Below are positions 45,818-53,051 of a stretch of DNA of 64,000 nt, one piece after another. Source of the DNA: a candidate division WOR-3 bacterium. Lineage in GTDB: Bacteria; Hydrothermota; Tepidihabitantia; SM23-42; JAOAFX01. The stretch covers positions 6,430 through 70,429 of the forward strand of contig JBDRWI010000002.1 of assembly GCA_039802265.1 (NCBI GenBank), written 5' to 3'. Position 1 is the stretch's first letter. Every line of letters begins with the position of its first letter. The notes under the pieces are model-generated. The model worked only from the letters and a program-made list of their open reading frames with translations, did not search any database and was not told the DNA's origin. Made by a program: the position numbers and the translations under genes.

Positions 45818-46259
45818 TATAAAATTCCTCCAGGGTCTTTGCCCTTAATATTTTGTGGTAGGGAATTAATACCTCACCGGATTTCAAAGCCAGAAGCACG
45901 CCGTCATTTCTTGCTTCTCTAATATGTCCGCAGACGCGGTTATCGCTTAAGACGACTTCAATAAATTTACCCAATGCCCACTTAAAGTGCTCAGGCCGGC
46001 TGAGAGGTCTTTCAATGCCCGGAGAAGAAACCTCCAGGGTATAGGGGAAGTCTATGAGATTGTTATTATCTAACTCCCGCGAAATTGCATTACTTACCGT
46101 TTCACAATCTTTAATTGTTACCGCGGAATCCTTTCGGTCAATAATGATGCGCAGTGTCTTTGAAACTTTATTAAACTGGATGTCATAGAGTCGTAGATTC
46201 ATATCACTCAGGATCAAGTTCACTTTTTCAGTTATCAAATCTAAATTCATTTCATCCAT
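45801..46259 (-). CDS. rimP: Ribosome maturation factor RimP.
   Basis: About 150 aa. 'LEVSSPGIERPL' motif. Positioned immediately upstream of nusA. Confidence 0.85.
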   Translation of the reverse strand: MDEMNLDLITEKVNLILSDMNLRLYDIQFNKVSKTLRIIIDRKDSAVTIKDCETVSNAISRELDNNNLIDFPYTLEVSSPGIERPLSRPEHFKWALGKFIEVVLSDNRVCGHIREARNDGVLLALKSGEVLIPYHKILRAKTLEEFYNGKRR

Positions 46260-47964
46260 TTATCCTCGCAAGTAAAGTCTCTTTTAATTTTATGCAGGTC
46301 TCCGCAACTGTCTCTTTTTTTATCTCAAATGTCTCACCCGTTTCTCGTAAATAGATATCAAACAGACCTTTCTTTAATCCTTTACTCCCAATAGTAAGGC
46401 GCATAGGAATACCTAAAAGGTCTGCGTCATTAAACTTTATACCGGCTGAATTATCCCGGTCATCAATGATAATTGAAAGATTATTTTTTGTCAAGGTCTC
46501 TATAATTTCTTGGGCAATCTGCCTTGTTTCAACAGGGTTGAGCAAAACGAGATAAATGTCATAAGGAGCAATTGAAATTGGCCACACTGCACCCCTCTCG
46601 TCCCCTTTCTGTTCAATTGCACAAGCCATAATTCGTTCAAGCCCAATGCCATAACTGCCCATTACTATCGGTCTTTCCTTTCCATTCACATCAGAAAAAT
46701 ATGCACCCATACTCACCGAATATTTTGTTCCCAATTTGAAGATATGGCCGAGTTCAAGACAATTCTCCAATCGCAATTGAGCACCACATTTAATACAACG
46801 GTCGGTTGTCTTTACCAGGCGGAGATTATAAAAATTATCTACCTTTATATCACGCTCCAAATTCAATCCTGAGATGTGAAAGTCATTTTCGTTTGCACCG
46901 GTGATCATTCCCTTTGTGCCTTTTAATAAATCATCAGCTATTATTACTACATCCTTTACGCCATAGGGACCAATATAACCCGGTTCAGCCCCAAAATATC
47001 TCTTTATTTCGTCGCTGGAGGCGGGTTGATATTCTCTACCAATTATCTTGCCGAGTGTCTCTATATTTATTTCATAATCACCCCTGATTAAAATGAGAAT
47101 CGGATTCTTACCCTGGGCAGTAAAGAACATACTCTTGACCAGTCGCTCTGCTGGAACATTTAGAAACTGGGTTACCTCCTCAACGGTTCTTATAGCCGGG
47201 GTTGGAATCTTTTCAATCACGGCATCAGGAAATGTTCGATAGTCTCCTGTTCCCTGTGCTACCGTAAGGTTTGCACGATAATCGCATTTTTCGCAAAGGA
47301 CAATCGTGTCTTCACCATTTTCAACCGGTGCCATAAATTCCTTTGACTCACCGGTTCCCATAAGCCCACCGGAGGCATCAACAATGATAAATTTCAAACC
47401 ACAACGTTTGAAAATTCTTGAGTACGCATCCTTATGTAAGTTAAAACTTTTATCAAGTCCTGCTTCGTCTACATCAAGGCTATAGGAGTCTTTCATGATA
47501 AACTGACGAGAGCGGATAACGCCAAACCTTGGTCTTGGTTCGTCCCGAAATTTAGTCTGGATTTGATACCAGATCTGGGGCAGGTCTCGATAGGAACGAA
47601 TCTTGGAGCGTGCAATCTGGGTGATAATCTCTTCATGGGTAGGGCAGAGGCAGTATTCGCGATTCTTCCTATCTTTCAGTCTAAACATATCCGCCCCAAA
47701 ATCGGTCCATCTACCTGATTCCTCCCAGACTTCTCTGGGCGAAATTGCCGGCATAAGCATTTCCTGTGCCCCGATACGGTCAAGTTCTTCCCTTATAATA
47801 TTGGCGATTTTTAATAAAATCCGCCAGCCAAGAGGAAGATAAGTATGGATTCCGGAGGCATGCTGCTTAATAAAACCGCCACGTAAAAGTATCCGGTGGC
47901 TTTTGCTCTCGGCATCCTTCGGGTCTTCCCTTAAGGTCTCAATCAGTGCCTTAGAAAATATCAT
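46252..47964 (-). CDS. proS: Prolyl-tRNA synthetase (bacterial type). The start is probably MIFSKALIETLRE at 47964; the ORF track extends to 48000.
   Basis: The N-terminus aligns with E. coli ProS ('LRGGFIKQHASGIHTYLPLGWRIL'). Class II motifs are present. Confidence 0.9.
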   Translation of the reverse strand: MIFSKALIETLREDPKDAESKSHRILLRGGFIKQHASGIHTYLPLGWRILLKIANIIREELDRIGAQEMLMPAISPREVWEESGRWTDFGADMFRLKDRKNREYCLCPTHEEIITQIARSKIRSYRDLPQIWYQIQTKFRDEPRPRFGVIRSRQFIMKDSYSLDVDEAGLDKSFNLHKDAYSRIFKRCGLKFIIVDASGGLMGTGESKEFMAPVENGEDTIVLCEKCDYRANLTVAQGTGDYRTFPDAVIEKIPTPAIRTVEEVTQFLNVPAERLVKSMFFTAQGKNPILILIRGDYEINIETLGKIIGREYQPASSDEIKRYFGAEPGYIGPYGVKDVVIIADDLLKGTKGMITGANENDFHISGLNLERDIKVDNFYNLRLVKTTDRCIKCGAQLRLENCLELGHIFKLGTKYSVSMGAYFSDVNGKERPIVMGSYGIGLERIMACAIEQKGDERGAVWPISIAPYDIYLVLLNPVETRQIAQEIIETLTKNNLSIIIDDRDNSAGIKFNDADLLGIPMRLTIGSKGLKKGLFDIYLRETGETFEIKKETVAETCIKLKETLLARING

Positions 47965-48334
47965 AACCATAAATATAACATAATTTTTCAAAAAAGTCAA
48001 CTAAAAAATTAATTTCCTGCCGTTTCAAAGTGAAAAATGTATCCTTCTCAAAATTGGGTGCATCAAACTACAGGATAATTGGTTTAAAAGTACCTGTAAA
48101 GGATTTTAGAGCAATTTTTTGTTTATGGGAAAAAAAGAGGGTTAGAAGAGATAATACCTTTACCTATGAGGGCAAGGACATCCTGTTGATCAGTGTGCTT
48201 ACAGGAAAAATGTAGATAAGTAATTGAATAGCATAAAGGTACATAATGTCTTGAAATTAAAGGACATTTTACCTTTGCAATAAAACCGCCGATTATGTTC
48301 ATTGACACTGTCCTTTTTTTGACTAAAATATGGA

Positions 48335-49417
48335 GTGTTTTTCTTATTGATTATTTCGGGACTTTCTCCGCAGAGTGTTGTTGCTAACGACCGACCGAAT
48401 GACGCCGGTGGTTGTGTTATAATAACATGGGATTCAGTCTCTGATACATCCATAGATGGCTATATAGTCTTAAGGCAGACACTTCCTGATACCACATTCA
48501 AAAGGGTTGGTTTCACGGGCAGGTTAAAGAATGAATTTGAGGATAATAGTGCGGTTGATTCAGAACGCTATGTTTACCGGATCGCTACCAAGAAAGGGGA
48601 GATGTACTATTATTCACCCCCAAGTAATGTCATTCATTCCTCACCACAATTCTTCCATACCGGCAGATTGAATACACTCATTGCGGTAATAATCTTTACC
48701 TTCCTTTTAGTCTATTTTGTCCGCCGGGCAAAGAAAGGAGAGAATCTTTTTATTAGAAAGATCAGTGGCATTGATGCAGTTGATGAGGCAATTGGCCGGG
48801 CTACAGAAATGGGAAGGCCAATTCTATATGTCCCCGGACTGGGCGATATTGATTTTCCTTCAACAATTGCCTCAATGAATATCCTTGGTGAGGTGGCAAA
48901 AAAGGTTGCAATGTATGATATCCCGCTCATTGCCGTGAATTGTTATCCTGTCGTCTTCACCGTTGCCCGTGAAATTGTCCATGAGGCATTCTTGAATCAG
49001 GGTAAGATTGAGAAATATAAAGACGACTATGTCCGTTATCTAACTGAATCTCAGTTTGGTTATGCCGGCGCGATAAATGGAATAATTCTAAGGGAACGCC
49101 CAGCCACCTGTTTCTTTATTGGACCATTCTTTGCTGAGTCATTGCTTATGGCCGAAACCGGCAATCAGATCGGTGCGGTTCAGATTGCTGGTACCGACCA
49201 GGTTCTCCAATTACCATTTTTTGTTACTGCCTGCGATTATACACTGCTCGGTGAAGAAGTCTATGCCGCCTCTGCCTACCTTTCACGGGAACCCATACTG
49301 TTAGGTTCATTAAAGGCACAGGATTTTGGGAAGTTTCTGGTATTGTTAATTCTTGTCTTTCTGACTGTTTTATCATTCTTTAATCTGAATCTTTTATCAT
49401 TTTTGAAGGTGGAATGA
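48335..49417 (+). CDS. Hypothetical membrane protein 'A': signal peptide, Fn3-like ectodomain, TM, about 230-aa cytoplasmic domain, and a C-terminal TM.
   Basis: GTG start. 'GGCVIITWDSV...GYIVLRQ...YVYRIAT' is Fn3-like. TMs 'LIAVIIFTFLLVYFV' and 'FLVLLILVFLTVLSFF'. No recognisable catalytic motif. Confidence 0.5.
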   Translation: MFFLLIISGLSPQSVVANDRPNDAGGCVIITWDSVSDTSIDGYIVLRQTLPDTTFKRVGFTGRLKNEFEDNSAVDSERYVYRIATKKGEMYYYSPPSNVIHSSPQFFHTGRLNTLIAVIIFTFLLVYFVRRAKKGENLFIRKISGIDAVDEAIGRATEMGRPILYVPGLGDIDFPSTIASMNILGEVAKKVAMYDIPLIAVNCYPVVFTVAREIVHEAFLNQGKIEKYKDDYVRYLTESQFGYAGAINGIILRERPATCFFIGPFFAESLLMAETGNQIGAVQIAGTDQVLQLPFFVTACDYTLLGEEVYAASAYLSREPILLGSLKAQDFGKFLVLLILVFLTVLSFFNLNLLSFLKVE

Positions 49418-50037
49418 AACAGCGTCTGCCGTTATTTATTTGCTTGGTTGTGGGACTATTGATGGTCATCCAGTTTTACATTCCCCACCCGGTCTCTGTT
49501 GGATTCAATAGTATTATAAACAAGTGGGTTGTTATTCTCTCCGCATTTGCCCTGGTCTTGGGGATCGGAAATTTGGTAAGTCATCATATTAGCAAAATCA
49601 AAAAGGCGAAAGCAGACCGATGGTATAGCCTGGTCACCCTTATAAGTATGACCCTGATGGCACTTGTGGGACTTGTCTTTGGAATCGGTCCGGATTCGCT
49701 TTATCAAAAAATCTTTCTTAATATTCTTACGCCCCTTGGTGCCACGATGTTTGCACTTTTAGCATATTATATGGCATCAGCGGCATACCGTGCATTCCGG
49801 GTCCGAAATATTGAGGCGAGCATATTATTGGCTTCGGCCTTTGTAGTGATGCTTGGTTTTATGCCCATCGGTCAGTTCCTCCATCCGTATTTCCCACAAG
49901 TTGCCGAGTGGATTATGCGCGTTCCCAATATGGCATCACAACGGGGTATCCTCTTTGGTGTCGCCTTCGGTTCAATTGCCACCGCATTGAAGATTATATT
50001 AGGTATTGAACGCTCTTGGTTGGGAAGCGGGAAATGA
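49414..50037 (+). CDS. Hypothetical polytopic membrane protein 'B' (about 5 TM, 207 aa).
   Basis: 4-nt overlap with A. Hydrophobic helices throughout. Confidence 0.5.
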   Translation: MKQRLPLFICLVVGLLMVIQFYIPHPVSVGFNSIINKWVVILSAFALVLGIGNLVSHHISKIKKAKADRWYSLVTLISMTLMALVGLVFGIGPDSLYQKIFLNILTPLGATMFALLAYYMASAAYRAFRVRNIEASILLASAFVVMLGFMPIGQFLHPYFPQVAEWIMRVPNMASQRGILFGVAFGSIATALKIILGIERSWLGSGK

Positions 50038-50040
50038 ACG

Positions 50041-50934
50041 GTGAAAATTATGAAGTGGTTTGAGATAGTCTCCCGTATTGATCGAAGGATAATTTACTCT
50101 TTGCTTACAATATTTGTAATTATTCCATTTTTTTTAAAGATTAAAATACCCCAGAACATAATGCCCCAGACTGAACGTTTATTCAAATTTATTGAAGGGA
50201 TTCCACCTAATGATAAGGCGGTAATGCTCTCAATTGACTACACACCCCAGACTATGCCCGAATGTCATCCAATGGCAATCGCCCTGCTCAGACACTGCTT
50301 CAAAAAGGGGATTCCGGTGCTCGGTGTCTCTTTTGACCCTCAGGCACCTGGTCTGGCAGTGGTTGCATTCAATACTGTTGTTGATGAATTCAACCGGCAG
50401 GCGGGAAGCAGGAGTGATTCACTAATTTATGGCCGAGACTATGTGTATCTGGGATGGAAGTCAGGCCGGGTAGCGGCCCTTATTGAAATGGGGGAGGGGA
50501 TAACCGGAGTCTTTCCGAAGGACTACTTTGATAATGCCACCGATACACTAACCTTATTGAAGCGGATAGTCAATTATAAGGATATTGCACTGGTGGTTGT
50601 GTTGGCGGCAGGAGATTATCCACAAGAATGGATTCTATATGCCCAGACAAGGTATGGGGTTAAAATTGGTGCCGGACTAACTGCGGTGATGGCACCTAAG
50701 TACTATCCATTCCTGCAAACCGGGCAGTTTTCGGGTATGATGTCCGGAATGAAAGGCGCCGCTGAATATGAGAATTTGCTCGTAAGATATGGTTATGCTA
50801 CAGAAACGGGTAAGGCGGAGATGGCAATGAATTCCCAGACCCTTGTGCACCTCTTAATAATCTTTCTCATTGTTATTGGAAATATCGGTTATCTTGCTAC
50901 AAGAAAAGAATCGGTTAAAAGGTTAAATGGTTAA
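50041..50934 (+). CDS. Hypothetical membrane protein 'C': N-terminal TM, about 230-aa soluble domain, C-terminal TM. Candidate paralogue of the A cytoplasmic domain.
   Basis: Starts 3 nt after B. TMs 'IIYSLLTIFVIIPFF' and 'LVHLLIIFLIVIGNIGYL'. Segments such as 'RDYVYLGWKSGRVAALIEMGEGITG' and 'VLAAGDYPQEWILYAQ' parallel 'DDYVRYLTESQFGYAGAINGIIL' and 'IAGTDQVLQLPFFVTACDY' in A. Confidence 0.5.
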   Translation: MKIMKWFEIVSRIDRRIIYSLLTIFVIIPFFLKIKIPQNIMPQTERLFKFIEGIPPNDKAVMLSIDYTPQTMPECHPMAIALLRHCFKKGIPVLGVSFDPQAPGLAVVAFNTVVDEFNRQAGSRSDSLIYGRDYVYLGWKSGRVAALIEMGEGITGVFPKDYFDNATDTLTLLKRIVNYKDIALVVVLAAGDYPQEWILYAQTRYGVKIGAGLTAVMAPKYYPFLQTGQFSGMMSGMKGAAEYENLLVRYGYATETGKAEMAMNSQTLVHLLIIFLIVIGNIGYLATRKESVKRLNG

Positions 50935-51009
50935 ATATTCAATTATTCAAAGGGCGTGATATATGACAGAAAAAGAATTTAACCATTTAACTAATTACCA
51001 GTTACCATT

Positions 51010-51630
51010 ATGAGCCCTGATCCCTGGGTCTGGATTGGTGCATTTCTGACCTTGATGATATTCTCATTTCTTTATAAAGACAATCCGCTGTATAAATTCG
51101 CCGAACATCTATTTGTTGGGGTAGCAAATGGTTATTACATTGTTTTTTACTGGCATCAGGCGCTCAAGCCCAATCTCTTGGAACCATTAAAAGAGGGAAA
51201 CTTTTTATATCTCATTCCCTTATTGCTCGGTCTATTATATTTTACAAAATTTATACCCAAGATTTCCTATCTTGTTCGCATTCCTATTGGATTTATGATT
51301 GGTTGGGGTGCCGGTATATCAATTCCAGCAAATCTACAGGGTTTCATCTTCAAACAACTTGAAGGAACGGTAATGACCCCTGTTAGTTTTAGGAGAATTG
51401 GCGAAGGTATATCATCATTGTTAATCCTTTTGGGTGTTATATGTACAGTTATCTATTTCTTCTTCTCCAAAGAACATAAAGGAATTCTTAGGATTGCCTC
51501 CAGGACCGGGATTATCTTTATTATGATTGGATTTGGCGCATCGTTTGGCTATACGGTTATGGCAAGGGTTAGCCTTTTAATTGGAAGGATTCAATTTTTG
51601 TTTGGTAACTGGCTCTGTATAATTCGTTAA
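51010..51630 (+). CDS. Hypothetical polytopic membrane protein 'D' (206 aa). Size- and topology-matched to B.
   Basis: Five to six hydrophobic helices. Same length class as B (207 aa). Confidence 0.5.
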   Translation: MSPDPWVWIGAFLTLMIFSFLYKDNPLYKFAEHLFVGVANGYYIVFYWHQALKPNLLEPLKEGNFLYLIPLLLGLLYFTKFIPKISYLVRIPIGFMIGWGAGISIPANLQGFIFKQLEGTVMTPVSFRRIGEGISSLLILLGVICTVIYFFFSKEHKGILRIASRTGIIFIMIGFGASFGYTVMARVSLLIGRIQFLFGNWLCIIR

Positions 51631-51644
51631 TTGAAAGGAGTACA

Positions 51645-52838
51645 ATGAAGAGCAAAGAGCATATTAAAATTATTAACAGATATAGTGCTAAAAATTATCT
51701 ACCCCTGCCTGTTGTCTTAAAAAGGGGAAGGGGAGTATGGGTCTGGGATGTTGAGGGAAAGAAATATCTTGATATGCTCAGTGCCTACTCAGCATTGAAT
51801 CAAGGGCATTGCCATCCTAAGATTTTAAGTGCCTTAAATAGGCAGGCTAAAACTTTGACCCTTACATCAAGGGCATTCCATAATGACCAGTTTGGACCCT
51901 TTTTAAAAAAACTCTGTAAGATTACCGGCTACCCGAGGGCTTTACCGATGAACTCAGGAGCTGAGGCAGTGGAAACCGCGATTAAGGCAGCACGAAAGTG
52001 GGGATATTATAAGAAAAAGGTGAAAGAAGATAGGGCAGAGATAATAGTGTGTGAAAACAATTTCCATGGTCGGACAACGACTATTGTGGGTTTTTCTACT
52101 GAAAAACAGTATCGCGCTGGATTTGGTCCTTTTACCCCCGGATTTAAGGTCATTCCCTATAATGACCCTAAGGCATTAGAGGATGCGATTACCGAGAATA
52201 CTGTTGGTTTTCTGGTGGAACCAATCCAGGGTGAAGGTGGGGTAATTGTTCCGGATGACGATTATTTAGTGCATTGTTTCCAAATCTGCAAGAAAAATAA
52301 TGTTTTATTGATTCTTGATGAAATCCAGACCGGGTTGGGCAGGACCGGCAAATTGTTTGCATATCAATATAGTGATATAAAACCGGATATATTGATTGTG
52401 GGGAAGGCATTGAGTGGTGGATTTTACCCGATTTCGGCAATCTTGGCTGACAATGAAATAATGGATGTCTTTAAACCCGGAGACCATGGCTCAACATTCG
52501 GTGGAAATCCCCTTGCCTGTGCGATTGGGATTGCAGCACTTGATGTAATTATTGAAGAGGGACTTCCTGAAAATGCCCAAAGACTGGGTGTTTGGTTTTT
52601 GAATGAGTTGAAGAAGATAGAAAGTCCAGTGATTAAAGAGGTAAGAGGCAAGGGTTTGTTGATTGGAGTGGAGTTGCGGGTGAAGGCACGCCGTTTCTGC
52701 GAGGAACTATTGGAGAATAGAATTCTTGCCAAGGAGACCCACGAGTATGTGGTTCGTTTTGCCCCACCACTGGTGATTACAGAAAAAGAATTAATTTGGG
52801 CACTCAAAAGGATAAAGAAAGTCTTTCAGGGGTGTTGA
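51645..52838 (+). CDS. rocD: Ornithine aminotransferase (class-III PLP aminotransferase).
   Basis: Near-collinear with B. subtilis RocD: 'NYLPLPVVLKRGRGVWVWDVEGKKYLDMLSAYSALNQGHCHPKI', 'DEIQTGLGRTGK', 'GKALSGG'. Confidence 0.85.
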   Translation: MKSKEHIKIINRYSAKNYLPLPVVLKRGRGVWVWDVEGKKYLDMLSAYSALNQGHCHPKILSALNRQAKTLTLTSRAFHNDQFGPFLKKLCKITGYPRALPMNSGAEAVETAIKAARKWGYYKKKVKEDRAEIIVCENNFHGRTTTIVGFSTEKQYRAGFGPFTPGFKVIPYNDPKALEDAITENTVGFLVEPIQGEGGVIVPDDDYLVHCFQICKKNNVLLILDEIQTGLGRTGKLFAYQYSDIKPDILIVGKALSGGFYPISAILADNEIMDVFKPGDHGSTFGGNPLACAIGIAALDVIIEEGLPENAQRLGVWFLNELKKIESPVIKEVRGKGLLIGVELRVKARRFCEELLENRILAKETHEYVVRFAPPLVITEKELIWALKRIKKVFQGC

Positions 52839-52977
52839 CAAAGATGTAAAGTCTATTATAATTAGGCATCAAAAAGATAGTTTGTGGGTTTGGGTTGAGA
52901 AGCTGGTTTTATAGCAAAGGGCAATAAACCATTAACGAAACGAGCATCCTGACCCATAAACTATAAACTATCTTTTA

Positions 52978-53051
52978 GCGCCTGTAGCTCAACTGGATAG
53001 AGCGACGGACTACGAATCCGTAGGCTGGGTGTTCAAGTCACCCCAGGCGCA
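52978..53051 (+). tRNA. tRNA-Arg (anticodon ACG).
   Basis: Acceptor GCGCCTG/CAGGCGC. D-arm GCTC-AACTGGATA-GAGC. Anticodon stem ACGGA/TCCGT with loop CTACGAA. T-arm GGGTG-TTCAAGT-CACCC. Confidence 0.85.

Follow-up and report, generated by a model that had tools for sequence, protein, structure and literature searches.

What kind of system is specified by four adjacent genes for membrane proteins, and whether these genes arose as two copies of a single gene pair, are the questions raised by positions 48335-51630 of a 64,000-nucleotide stretch (the window) of contig JBDRWI010000002.1 from a candidate division WOR-3 bacterium. The four open reading frames (ORFs), designated A, B, C, and D in their order, are co-oriented on the + strand at these coordinates, tightly packed and divergent from proS, as described in an earlier note on this DNA; the spacing of 4 nucleotides given there is an overlap of A and B, and gaps of 3 and 75 nucleotides separate B from C and C from D. 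Their closest relatives are found in metagenome-assembled genomes (MAGs) of candidate division WOR-3 (Caldifarciminota in the current NCBI taxonomy). The comparisons reported here indicate that A-B-C-D is a conserved cassette whose products very probably assemble into one obligate complex of the cytoplasmic membrane, with an external and a cytoplasmic face, and they lead to a more tentative reading of this complex as a transporter or translocase.

The gene order was compared in 90 loci, of which one came from a genome collection, three from the surroundings of close homologs of A, 79 from a metagenome scan with an alignment of C, and seven from the surroundings of distant homologs of D. In every locus long enough to show the order, A-B-C-D follow one another on one strand, and among the 90 there was no other gene order, no interrupted cassette, and no isolated pair, a regularity far beyond what chance would give. 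Flanking genes vary with the lineage, being metG or proS in WOR-3 and genes for Peptidase_M20, Peptidase_S9, a deoxyhypusine-synthase-like protein, MutL, or DUF885 elsewhere, and conservation from lineage to lineage is confined to the four genes; since the order is kept while the flanks differ, the cassette can be regarded as a conserved unit. It is seen in WOR-3, Eisenbacteria (a locus with the same four genes called in the same order), Latescibacterota, Bacillota including Symbiobacteriaceae, and two further lineages of MAGs, and homologs of single subunits occur also in TA06, Hydrothermota, and a cultured planctomycete, the occurrences spanning at least seven bacterial phyla. Among the carriers of D homologs are WOR-3, TA06, Hydrothermota, Eisenbacteria, Latescibacterota, Planctomycetota (Calycomorphotria hydatis), and Bacillota including Symbiobacteriaceae. 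Across the WOR-3 phylum the subunits are 60-70% identical, and in Bacillota, Symbiobacteriaceae, Latescibacterota, and two further lineages all four are detected at E-values of 1e-43 to 1e-128 and share 26-44% identity with their counterparts in the window. The G+C content of the loci ranges from 36% to 69%, and start/stop overlaps of 4 nucleotides are common among the cassettes. In a word-indexed database A, B, and C gave at least 7,980, 2,796, and 698 matches, respectively, counts that are not comparable between families, and an exhaustive search for D returned 2,361 clusters at 50% identity. Whole cassettes also form tandem arrays with two or three copies (ABCDABCDABCD in L031; also L036, L078, L048, L032, L052, and L064), in which the paralogous cassettes have diverged in step (65, 66, 61, and 68% identity for A, B, C, and D), their external parts (the fibronectin type III, Fn3, domain of A, and C) diverging fastest. 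The unit that duplicates is the whole ABCD cassette, never a pair.

The view that the module has no characterized relatives, expressed earlier from the sequence of the window, is borne out by the family searches as its conservation is by the synteny. With regard to family assignment, it holds as it stood for B, C, and D, which have no match in Pfam or NCBIfam, and needs to be modified for A, the only one of the four placed in a family, DUF6754 (PF20539), itself a domain of unknown function. Pfam scans made member by member, with 41-43 members each of the B, C, and D families, revealed no recurrent family, and a match of B to MgtC (E 8e-4) was rejected as confined to the window protein. Profile searches of the PDB with B, C, and D gave nothing at E ≤ 0.05, the single match of C being at E 0.065, and the PADLOC models of anti-phage defense gave no match at E ≤ 0.01, the sole match, of B to C3a124, having an E-value of 0.039. 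A literature search with DUF6754, PF20539, the accessions, and descriptive terms found no paper that mentions them. The cassette therefore appears to represent a new, widespread family whose only trace in the databases is the entry for one subunit, and that entry covers the domain of A and leaves out its partners B, C, and D, the cassette, the Fn3 and SLBB accessories, and the topology.

Subunit A consists of a short hydrophobic N terminus, described as a signal or anchor segment, the Fn3 domain at residues 13-102, a transmembrane (TM) helix at about 111-133, a domain of about 200 residues, and a second TM helix at about 333-353. Residues 104-352 match positions 3-251 of the 257 in the DUF6754 model (E 2.5e-112, 374.6 bits), a full-length match above the gathering score of 27 bits by which membership was defined, and the homologs of A in every phylum sampled also match PF20539. 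Assignment of the Fn3 domain is supported by an AlphaFold2 (AF2) model with a predicted local distance difference test score (pLDDT) of about 90 over residues 13-102, by Foldseek matches of this model to titin and other Fn3 domains (E 4e-6, target TM-score 0.6-0.77), and by a profile of A that finds titin among PDB sequences at E 3e-13, in matches restricted to the Fn3 part; Pfam fn3 matches are seen in homologs of A, the window protein itself having none at E ≤ 1. In the AF2 model of the whole of A (pLDDT 64), half of DUF6754 is modeled, with the element order H-E-H-E-H-E over residues 146-235, and pLDDT is below 50 over 238-329. Residues kept in at least 97% of sequences in all phyla are R141, the motif G154-R-A-T-E-M-G160 (which includes R155 and E158), R253, E268, P294-F-F, C300-D301, E308, and D330. 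The flanks of DUF6754 carry on family average 7.0 lysine and arginine residues (K+R), including RRAKKG directly after the first TM helix, against 1.8 on the Fn3 side, and under the positive-inside rule the DUF6754 domain is predicted to be cytoplasmic and the Fn3 domain external.

The two parts of A also differ in their rates of change, the identity between paralogs being 30-68% for Fn3 versus 60-95% for DUF6754. In some WOR-3 genomes a second A gene is found directly upstream of the cassette (AABCD; L002 8001-10314, L003 6806-9095, L009, and L019), and in the extra copies DUF6754 is 81-95% identical but Fn3 just 41-58%; such copies may be alternative ectodomain subunits that operate on one shared B-C-D core. 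Bacillota and several other lineages have an A of 258-279 residues that lacks the Fn3 domain, and in one clade with such an A the gene directly upstream, in the same orientation, specifies a protein of about 420 residues with three SLBB domains (L056, L059, L061, L069 3075-4328, and L077). It should be noted that one homolog of A (P0159, from a contig of 3,050 bp), which shares 62% identity with A of the window, is labeled "Thermoplasmatales archaeon" at NCBI; because it is close to WOR-3 sequences and the contig is short, this label is probably a binning error.

The two polytopic subunits had been credited with five to six TM segments each, a figure that stands for B, with six, and is extended for D, for which six to seven are predicted. 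Both termini of B are predicted to be inside, so placing the motifs AYRAFRARS and IERSWLGG in the cytoplasm and VPNxAxKRG in an external loop, and residues found in at least 97% of sequences across phyla are H58, S72, Y125, R126, W166, R177, T190, E199, and R200. The motifs of D are KDNPFYxFAEH, FFFSREHKG, and GFGASFGYTVMAR, and at the same level of conservation it has N25, E32, H33, Q116, T182, R186, and many glycines. Since the N terminus of D is uncharged and its loops L3 and L5 are positive (2.8 and 2.6 K+R), this terminus is predicted to lie outside. The external loop L4 of D (about residues 108-131, the insertion site being at about 125-132 in the window protein) is a hotspot of insertion in other lineages, with helical, charged inserts of 100-350 residues (P0442, P0445, P0448, P0450, P0492, P0412, and others) that have no Pfam match save for EF-hand motifs in P0412. 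The TM helices of both B and D are glycine-rich and free of charged residues, with conserved intramembrane glycines and prolines, and many of the universally conserved residues are on predicted cytoplasmic loops (AYRAFRARS, IERSWLGG, KDNPFYxFAEH, and FFFSREHKG), which are plausible docking sites for the domain of A.

Subunit C has an α/β Rossmann-like domain of about 230 residues between TM helices at about 16-32 and 265-285, a glycine-rich juxtamembrane block (GQxSGxxxGxKGAAEYE), the conserved His270 and Asn281 in the second TM helix, and a cytoplasmic tail rich in lysine and arginine. Conserved to the same extent as the residues listed for the other subunits (at least 97%, all phyla) are R15, E74, D161, G228-Q229...G239-A-x-E242-Y-E244, H270, and N281. 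Its N terminus, with the invariant R15 and R16, and its C-terminal tail are both placed inside by their charge, and the soluble domain is therefore predicted to be outside. The topology predicted from the positive-inside rule is also consistent with a natural fusion of C and D in the cultured planctomycete Calycomorphotria hydatis (P0486; QDT64036.1 / WP_145260865.1; 598 residues), in which the C and D parts are separated by an acidic linker and by a single extra TM helix (residues 295-313), as would be needed for the inside C terminus of C to be joined to the outside N terminus of D. No further fusions were found among the collected loci.

The best Foldseek matches of the C domain are half-domains of GT-B glycosyltransferases, and it might be proposed that the cassette encodes an enzyme bound to the membrane or a complex for biogenesis, which could, for instance, modify or flip a lipid-linked precursor of the envelope, with A as the catalytic subunit and B and D as a scaffold. 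Such an enzyme could employ the universal C300-D301, E158, E268, E308, R155, and R253 of DUF6754, and the approximately 90 positions that are invariant among 50 WOR-3 sequences, the uncharged, glycine-rich TM helices, and the frequent housekeeping or envelope neighbors (glmM-like PGM_PMM, cdaA, murJ, and uppS-type genes) are in keeping with this. However, no catalytic family was recognized, the Foldseek matches are weak (E ≥ 1.4e-3, TMq about 0.3), and the domain of C is predicted to face the exterior, which is devoid of nucleotide-sugars; tandem arrays with rapidly evolving exteriors are, moreover, more typical of ligand-specific systems. An enzymatic role is on these grounds considered unlikely.

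The predicted topology also bears on the origin of the cassette. The earlier note had proposed an ancient tandem duplication of a bitopic-polytopic pair, yielding A-B and C-D, and its description of A and C as TM-domain-TM proteins, with an Fn3-like ectodomain in A, is upheld by AF2, Foldseek, and TM prediction; B (207 residues) and D (206 residues) do match in size, and the modeled parts of the soluble domains of A and C both begin H-E-H-E-H-E. The parallel segments perceived in the soluble domains of A and C, however, do not withstand comparison with controls. BLASTP gives E-values of 0.6 for A/C and 0.2 for B/D, and the hit sets of the four families in three rounds of jackhmmer over all ORFs of the loci are disjoint. 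When hhalign was applied to family profiles of 81-90 sequences, with local, greedy, and global alignment and with reversed-profile controls, the probabilities were 1.4% for A/C and 0.4% for B/D, with only TM helices aligned, and the unrelated control pairs A/B, A/D, B/C, and C/D scored similarly. Profiles confined to the soluble domains scored 13.8 for A/C, as compared with 16.8 and 18.4 for the reversed controls, and the score for B/D was 16.3, as compared with 16.1 and 18.5. No internal repeats or similarity between halves were found in B or D. Furthermore, the soluble domains of A and C are predicted to be separated by the membrane, and B is predicted to start inside but D outside; the charge-based topology and the extra helix in the C-D fusion therefore argue that the paired subunits are not equivalent in orientation. 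Only whole cassettes have been duplicated, and a single pair is present in no genome sampled. An origin of the four genes by duplication of a pair is improbable, although a relationship at the level of the fold may be too old to have left a trace in the sequences.

In the complex that we propose, A, B, C, and D would together contribute about 16-17 TM helices. The Fn3 domain of A, the Rossmann-like domain of C, and the variable loops of D would constitute the external face, and the DUF6754 domain of A, docked to the conserved loops that B and D expose on the inside, would constitute the cytoplasmic face; the genes would be co-transcribed and translationally coupled, co-evolving and being duplicated only as a set. 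If the complex mediates transport or translocation, B and D could form a glycine- and proline-rich pathway through the membrane, C, together with the Fn3 domain or, in one clade, with the separate SLBB protein, could capture or select an external ligand, and the cytoplasmic domain of A could gate or couple its movement. Transport is favored because two polytopic subunits of about 206 residues have conserved intramembrane glycine and proline and cytoplasmic loop motifs, because a tethered external α/β domain is combined with exchangeable external modules and a conserved cytoplasmic module with conserved loops, because the paralogs in tandem arrays diverge fastest in the parts that are outside, and, by weak association, because enzymes of amino acid and peptide metabolism are encoded nearby. 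Several points weigh against this. No subunit resembles a known transporter, channel, or ATPase family in Pfam, NCBIfam, or PDB profiles, no energizing module can be recognized, a Walker motif is missing, and neither in B nor in D is an acidic residue at a mid-helix position of a TM segment universally conserved. The universal pair C300 and D301 of DUF6754 and several of its arginines and glutamates would also suit an enzyme. The signal from the neighborhood is weak and heterogeneous, with 167 Pfam families among the 140 nearest genes and each amino acid or peptidase family found at most four times. Finally, the topology and the assembly are predictions, and the DUF6754 model includes the segment 238-329 with pLDDT below 50. 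Transport is thus put forward as a tentative assignment.

Two faces, one variable and external and the other conserved and internal, might equally be expected of a TM sensor or regulatory complex, in which binding outside the cell by Fn3 or C is relayed to the cytoplasmic domain of A, and the EF-hand insert in the external loop of D in one lineage and the presence of cdaA and a PucR-type regulator near some loci could be viewed in the same light. Nevertheless, there is no known output domain (kinase, cyclase, helix-turn-helix, or similar) in the subunits and no cognate regulator conserved nearby, and two dedicated six-TM subunits would be unusual in a sensor, which makes this interpretation very improbable.

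The genes adjoining the cassette provide a weak hint of the substrate of a transporter, which might be amino acids, peptides, or related amines. Tight neighbors on the same strand encode Peptidase_M20 in a Bacillota locus and in L088, Peptidase_S9 in L088, DUF885 in a Symbiobacteriaceae locus, a deoxyhypusine-synthase-like protein in Eisenbacteria, and a MutL-type protein (PF13941) in Latescibacterota; DAO, purF-like, and cdaA genes are similarly placed in other loci, and racemase and Opp genes are located further downstream in Bacillota. A dereplicated census set the two genes closest to the cassette on either flank (n = 140) against more distant genes of these loci (n = 140), and Por_Secre_tail, found in 10 of 140 near genes versus fewer than 2 of 140 far ones, was the sole family to stand out. 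This enrichment, the adjacent C25 peptidases with tails for the type IX secretion system (T9SS), the SLBB protein upstream of the Fn3-less A, and the external domains of the bitopic subunits could be taken to indicate an energy-transducing or secretion-associated device that spans the envelope, for T9SS cargo or for polysaccharide export, in the manner of ExbBD, GldLM, or Wzc-Wza. Seven of the ten Por_Secre_tail matches, however, are one orthologous, convergently oriented neighbor in a single clade, and the cassette is intact in Bacillota and the C-D fusion is in a planctomycete, both phyla that are not known to possess T9SS; the link to T9SS is therefore treated as synteny within a lineage. 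There is also no MotA/ExbB or ExbD signal, MotA_ExbB being matched by 2 of 43 B members at E of about 0.11, and no conserved acidic TM residue in A or C, so that a stator of the MotA/ExbB type was rejected and a trans-envelope device as a whole seems quite improbable. As a separate observation, genes for 23S rRNA intervening-sequence proteins (PF05635) immediately precede the cassette in three loci that belong to the tandem-array clade (L031 25-510, L072, and L078 3717-4142).

With respect to the favored assignment as a transporter or translocase, the logic of the cassette is similar to that of ABC importers and the TRAP and TTT systems in having an external, ligand-binding-like α/β domain, two polytopic subunits whose cytoplasmic loops carry conserved motifs, a conserved cytoplasmic module, and paralogs that vary on the outside. 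It differs from them in that ATPase, Walker, and signature motifs and homology with BPD_transp, ABC2, DctQ/M, or TctA/B are all lacking: no subunit or scanned family member matches ABC_tran, BPD_transp, or ABC2_membrane, no ATPase gene is in the cassette or consistently beside it, and the same member scans gave no Pfam match to DctQ/M or TctA/B. Moreover, binding-protein importers have a free, two-lobed binding protein, whereas in C a single Rossmann-like lobe is tethered by two TM helices. GldG-like subunits, in which N- and C-terminal TM helices surround an external α/β domain and which are partnered with a six-TM permease, are also reminiscent of the cassette; DUF4340 is often encoded near GldG-like genes, and a DUF4340 gene adjoins the cassette in L089. 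The cassette differs from GldF/GldG in having no Pfam ABC_transp_aux or ABC2_membrane signal in the 41-43 members scanned per family and no ATPase gene. RnfA/RnfE and NqrD/NqrE resemble B and D in being two six-TM subunits of about 200 residues, encoded in one operon and opposite in orientation, but these are homologous with each other (Pfam Rnf-Nqr), whereas B and D are similar neither to each other (hhalign, as above) nor to that family, which they do not match in Pfam; they have no universally conserved cysteine, and flavin and Fe-S subunits are absent from the cassette. The comparison with known systems also took in the proton-translocating transhydrogenase PntAB (domain III) and DHS-like NAD-binding domains, an assignment to which would call for a particular fold match clearly exceeding the general Rossmann background, a nucleotide-binding fingerprint, and a position in the cytoplasm. 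MFS and other single-chain carriers were discounted since there is no match at E ≤ 1 in 43 B or 43 D members and B and D are separate proteins, and ECF transporters since the member scans of B and D gave no CbiQ or ECF match and there is no ATPase; EcfT has an Ala-Arg-Ser motif, which the sequence RARS in B merely resembles. Because no subunit belongs to a characterized family and the defining features of ABC, MFS, ECF, Rnf/Nqr, and MotA/ExbB systems are lacking, the cassette is considered new as a system. That it represents a previously unrecognized class of multi-subunit transporter or translocase in at least seven phyla of Bacillati and Pseudomonadati, with subunits unrelated to characterized families, DUF6754 as a new coupling or gating module replacing the ABC ATPase, and external modules (Fn3, the SLBB protein, and the inserts in the D loop) that set specificity, is a more speculative proposal and, taken as a whole, a doubtful one.

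This is a large family about which no publication was found, and family databases lack three of its four subunits. Its carriers are uncultured lineages from sediments and digesters together with a cultured planctomycete, and as a target it is well defined by its strict synteny, its translational coupling, and the natural fusion. Should the cassette be a new type of transporter or a machine of the envelope, it would supply a missing piece to metabolic reconstructions of many candidate phyla, in which the genes are now labeled "hypothetical". The cultured Calycomorphotria hydatis opens the question to experiment, with the C-D fusion as a possible entry point.

Table 1. Features at the four-gene locus, in coordinates of the window
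Feature	Position	Strand	Description
A	48335..49417	+	360 amino acids, GTG start
B	49414..50037	+	207 amino acids, six-TM
C	50041..50934	+	297 amino acids, GTG start
D	51010..51630	+	206 amino acids, six to seven hydrophobic segments
proS	46252-48000	-	upstream of A, divergent from cassette
Sigma-70-like promoter candidate	48302..48329	+	TTGACA, 16 nucleotides, TAAAAT; 11/12 matches; consensus match only
Class-III aminotransferase, ornithine/acetylornithine-type	51645..52838	+	Pfam Aminotran_3, E 1e-131

The surroundings of the cassette in the window (Table 1) are of housekeeping character, with nusA, rimP, and proS upstream and the aminotransferase gene, tRNA-Arg, prfA, and prmC downstream. 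The start codons of A and C are slightly uncertain; the database proteins that are 100% identical to them begin at TTG 48347 (P0121, 356 residues) and ATG 50050 (P0001, 294 residues), respectively. The promoter candidate ends 6 nucleotides 5' of the GTG of A, a proximity that suggests either a leaderless transcript or a start set in the wrong place, the true one being further downstream (e.g. TTG 48347). Comparison of the leader region with Rfam revealed no family and no riboswitch. An ORF for 84 amino acids on the - strand (48199-48453) runs antisense across the start of A and the promoter region; it is unsupported and probably spurious.

The aminotransferase gene begins 14 nucleotides after D, and no terminator-like site was found between the two. 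In L001, L014, and L020 it overlaps D by 4 nucleotides and is therefore probably co-translated with the cassette in the WOR-3 lineage. No aminotransferase gene is next to the cassette in the loci of other phyla, and the gene is a probable extension of the operon specific to the WOR-3 lineage, outside the core cassette. Just past it, at 52835-52862, a perfect 12/12 promoter match (TTGACA, 16 nucleotides, TATAAT) is situated upstream of tRNA-Arg(acg) at 52978-53051.

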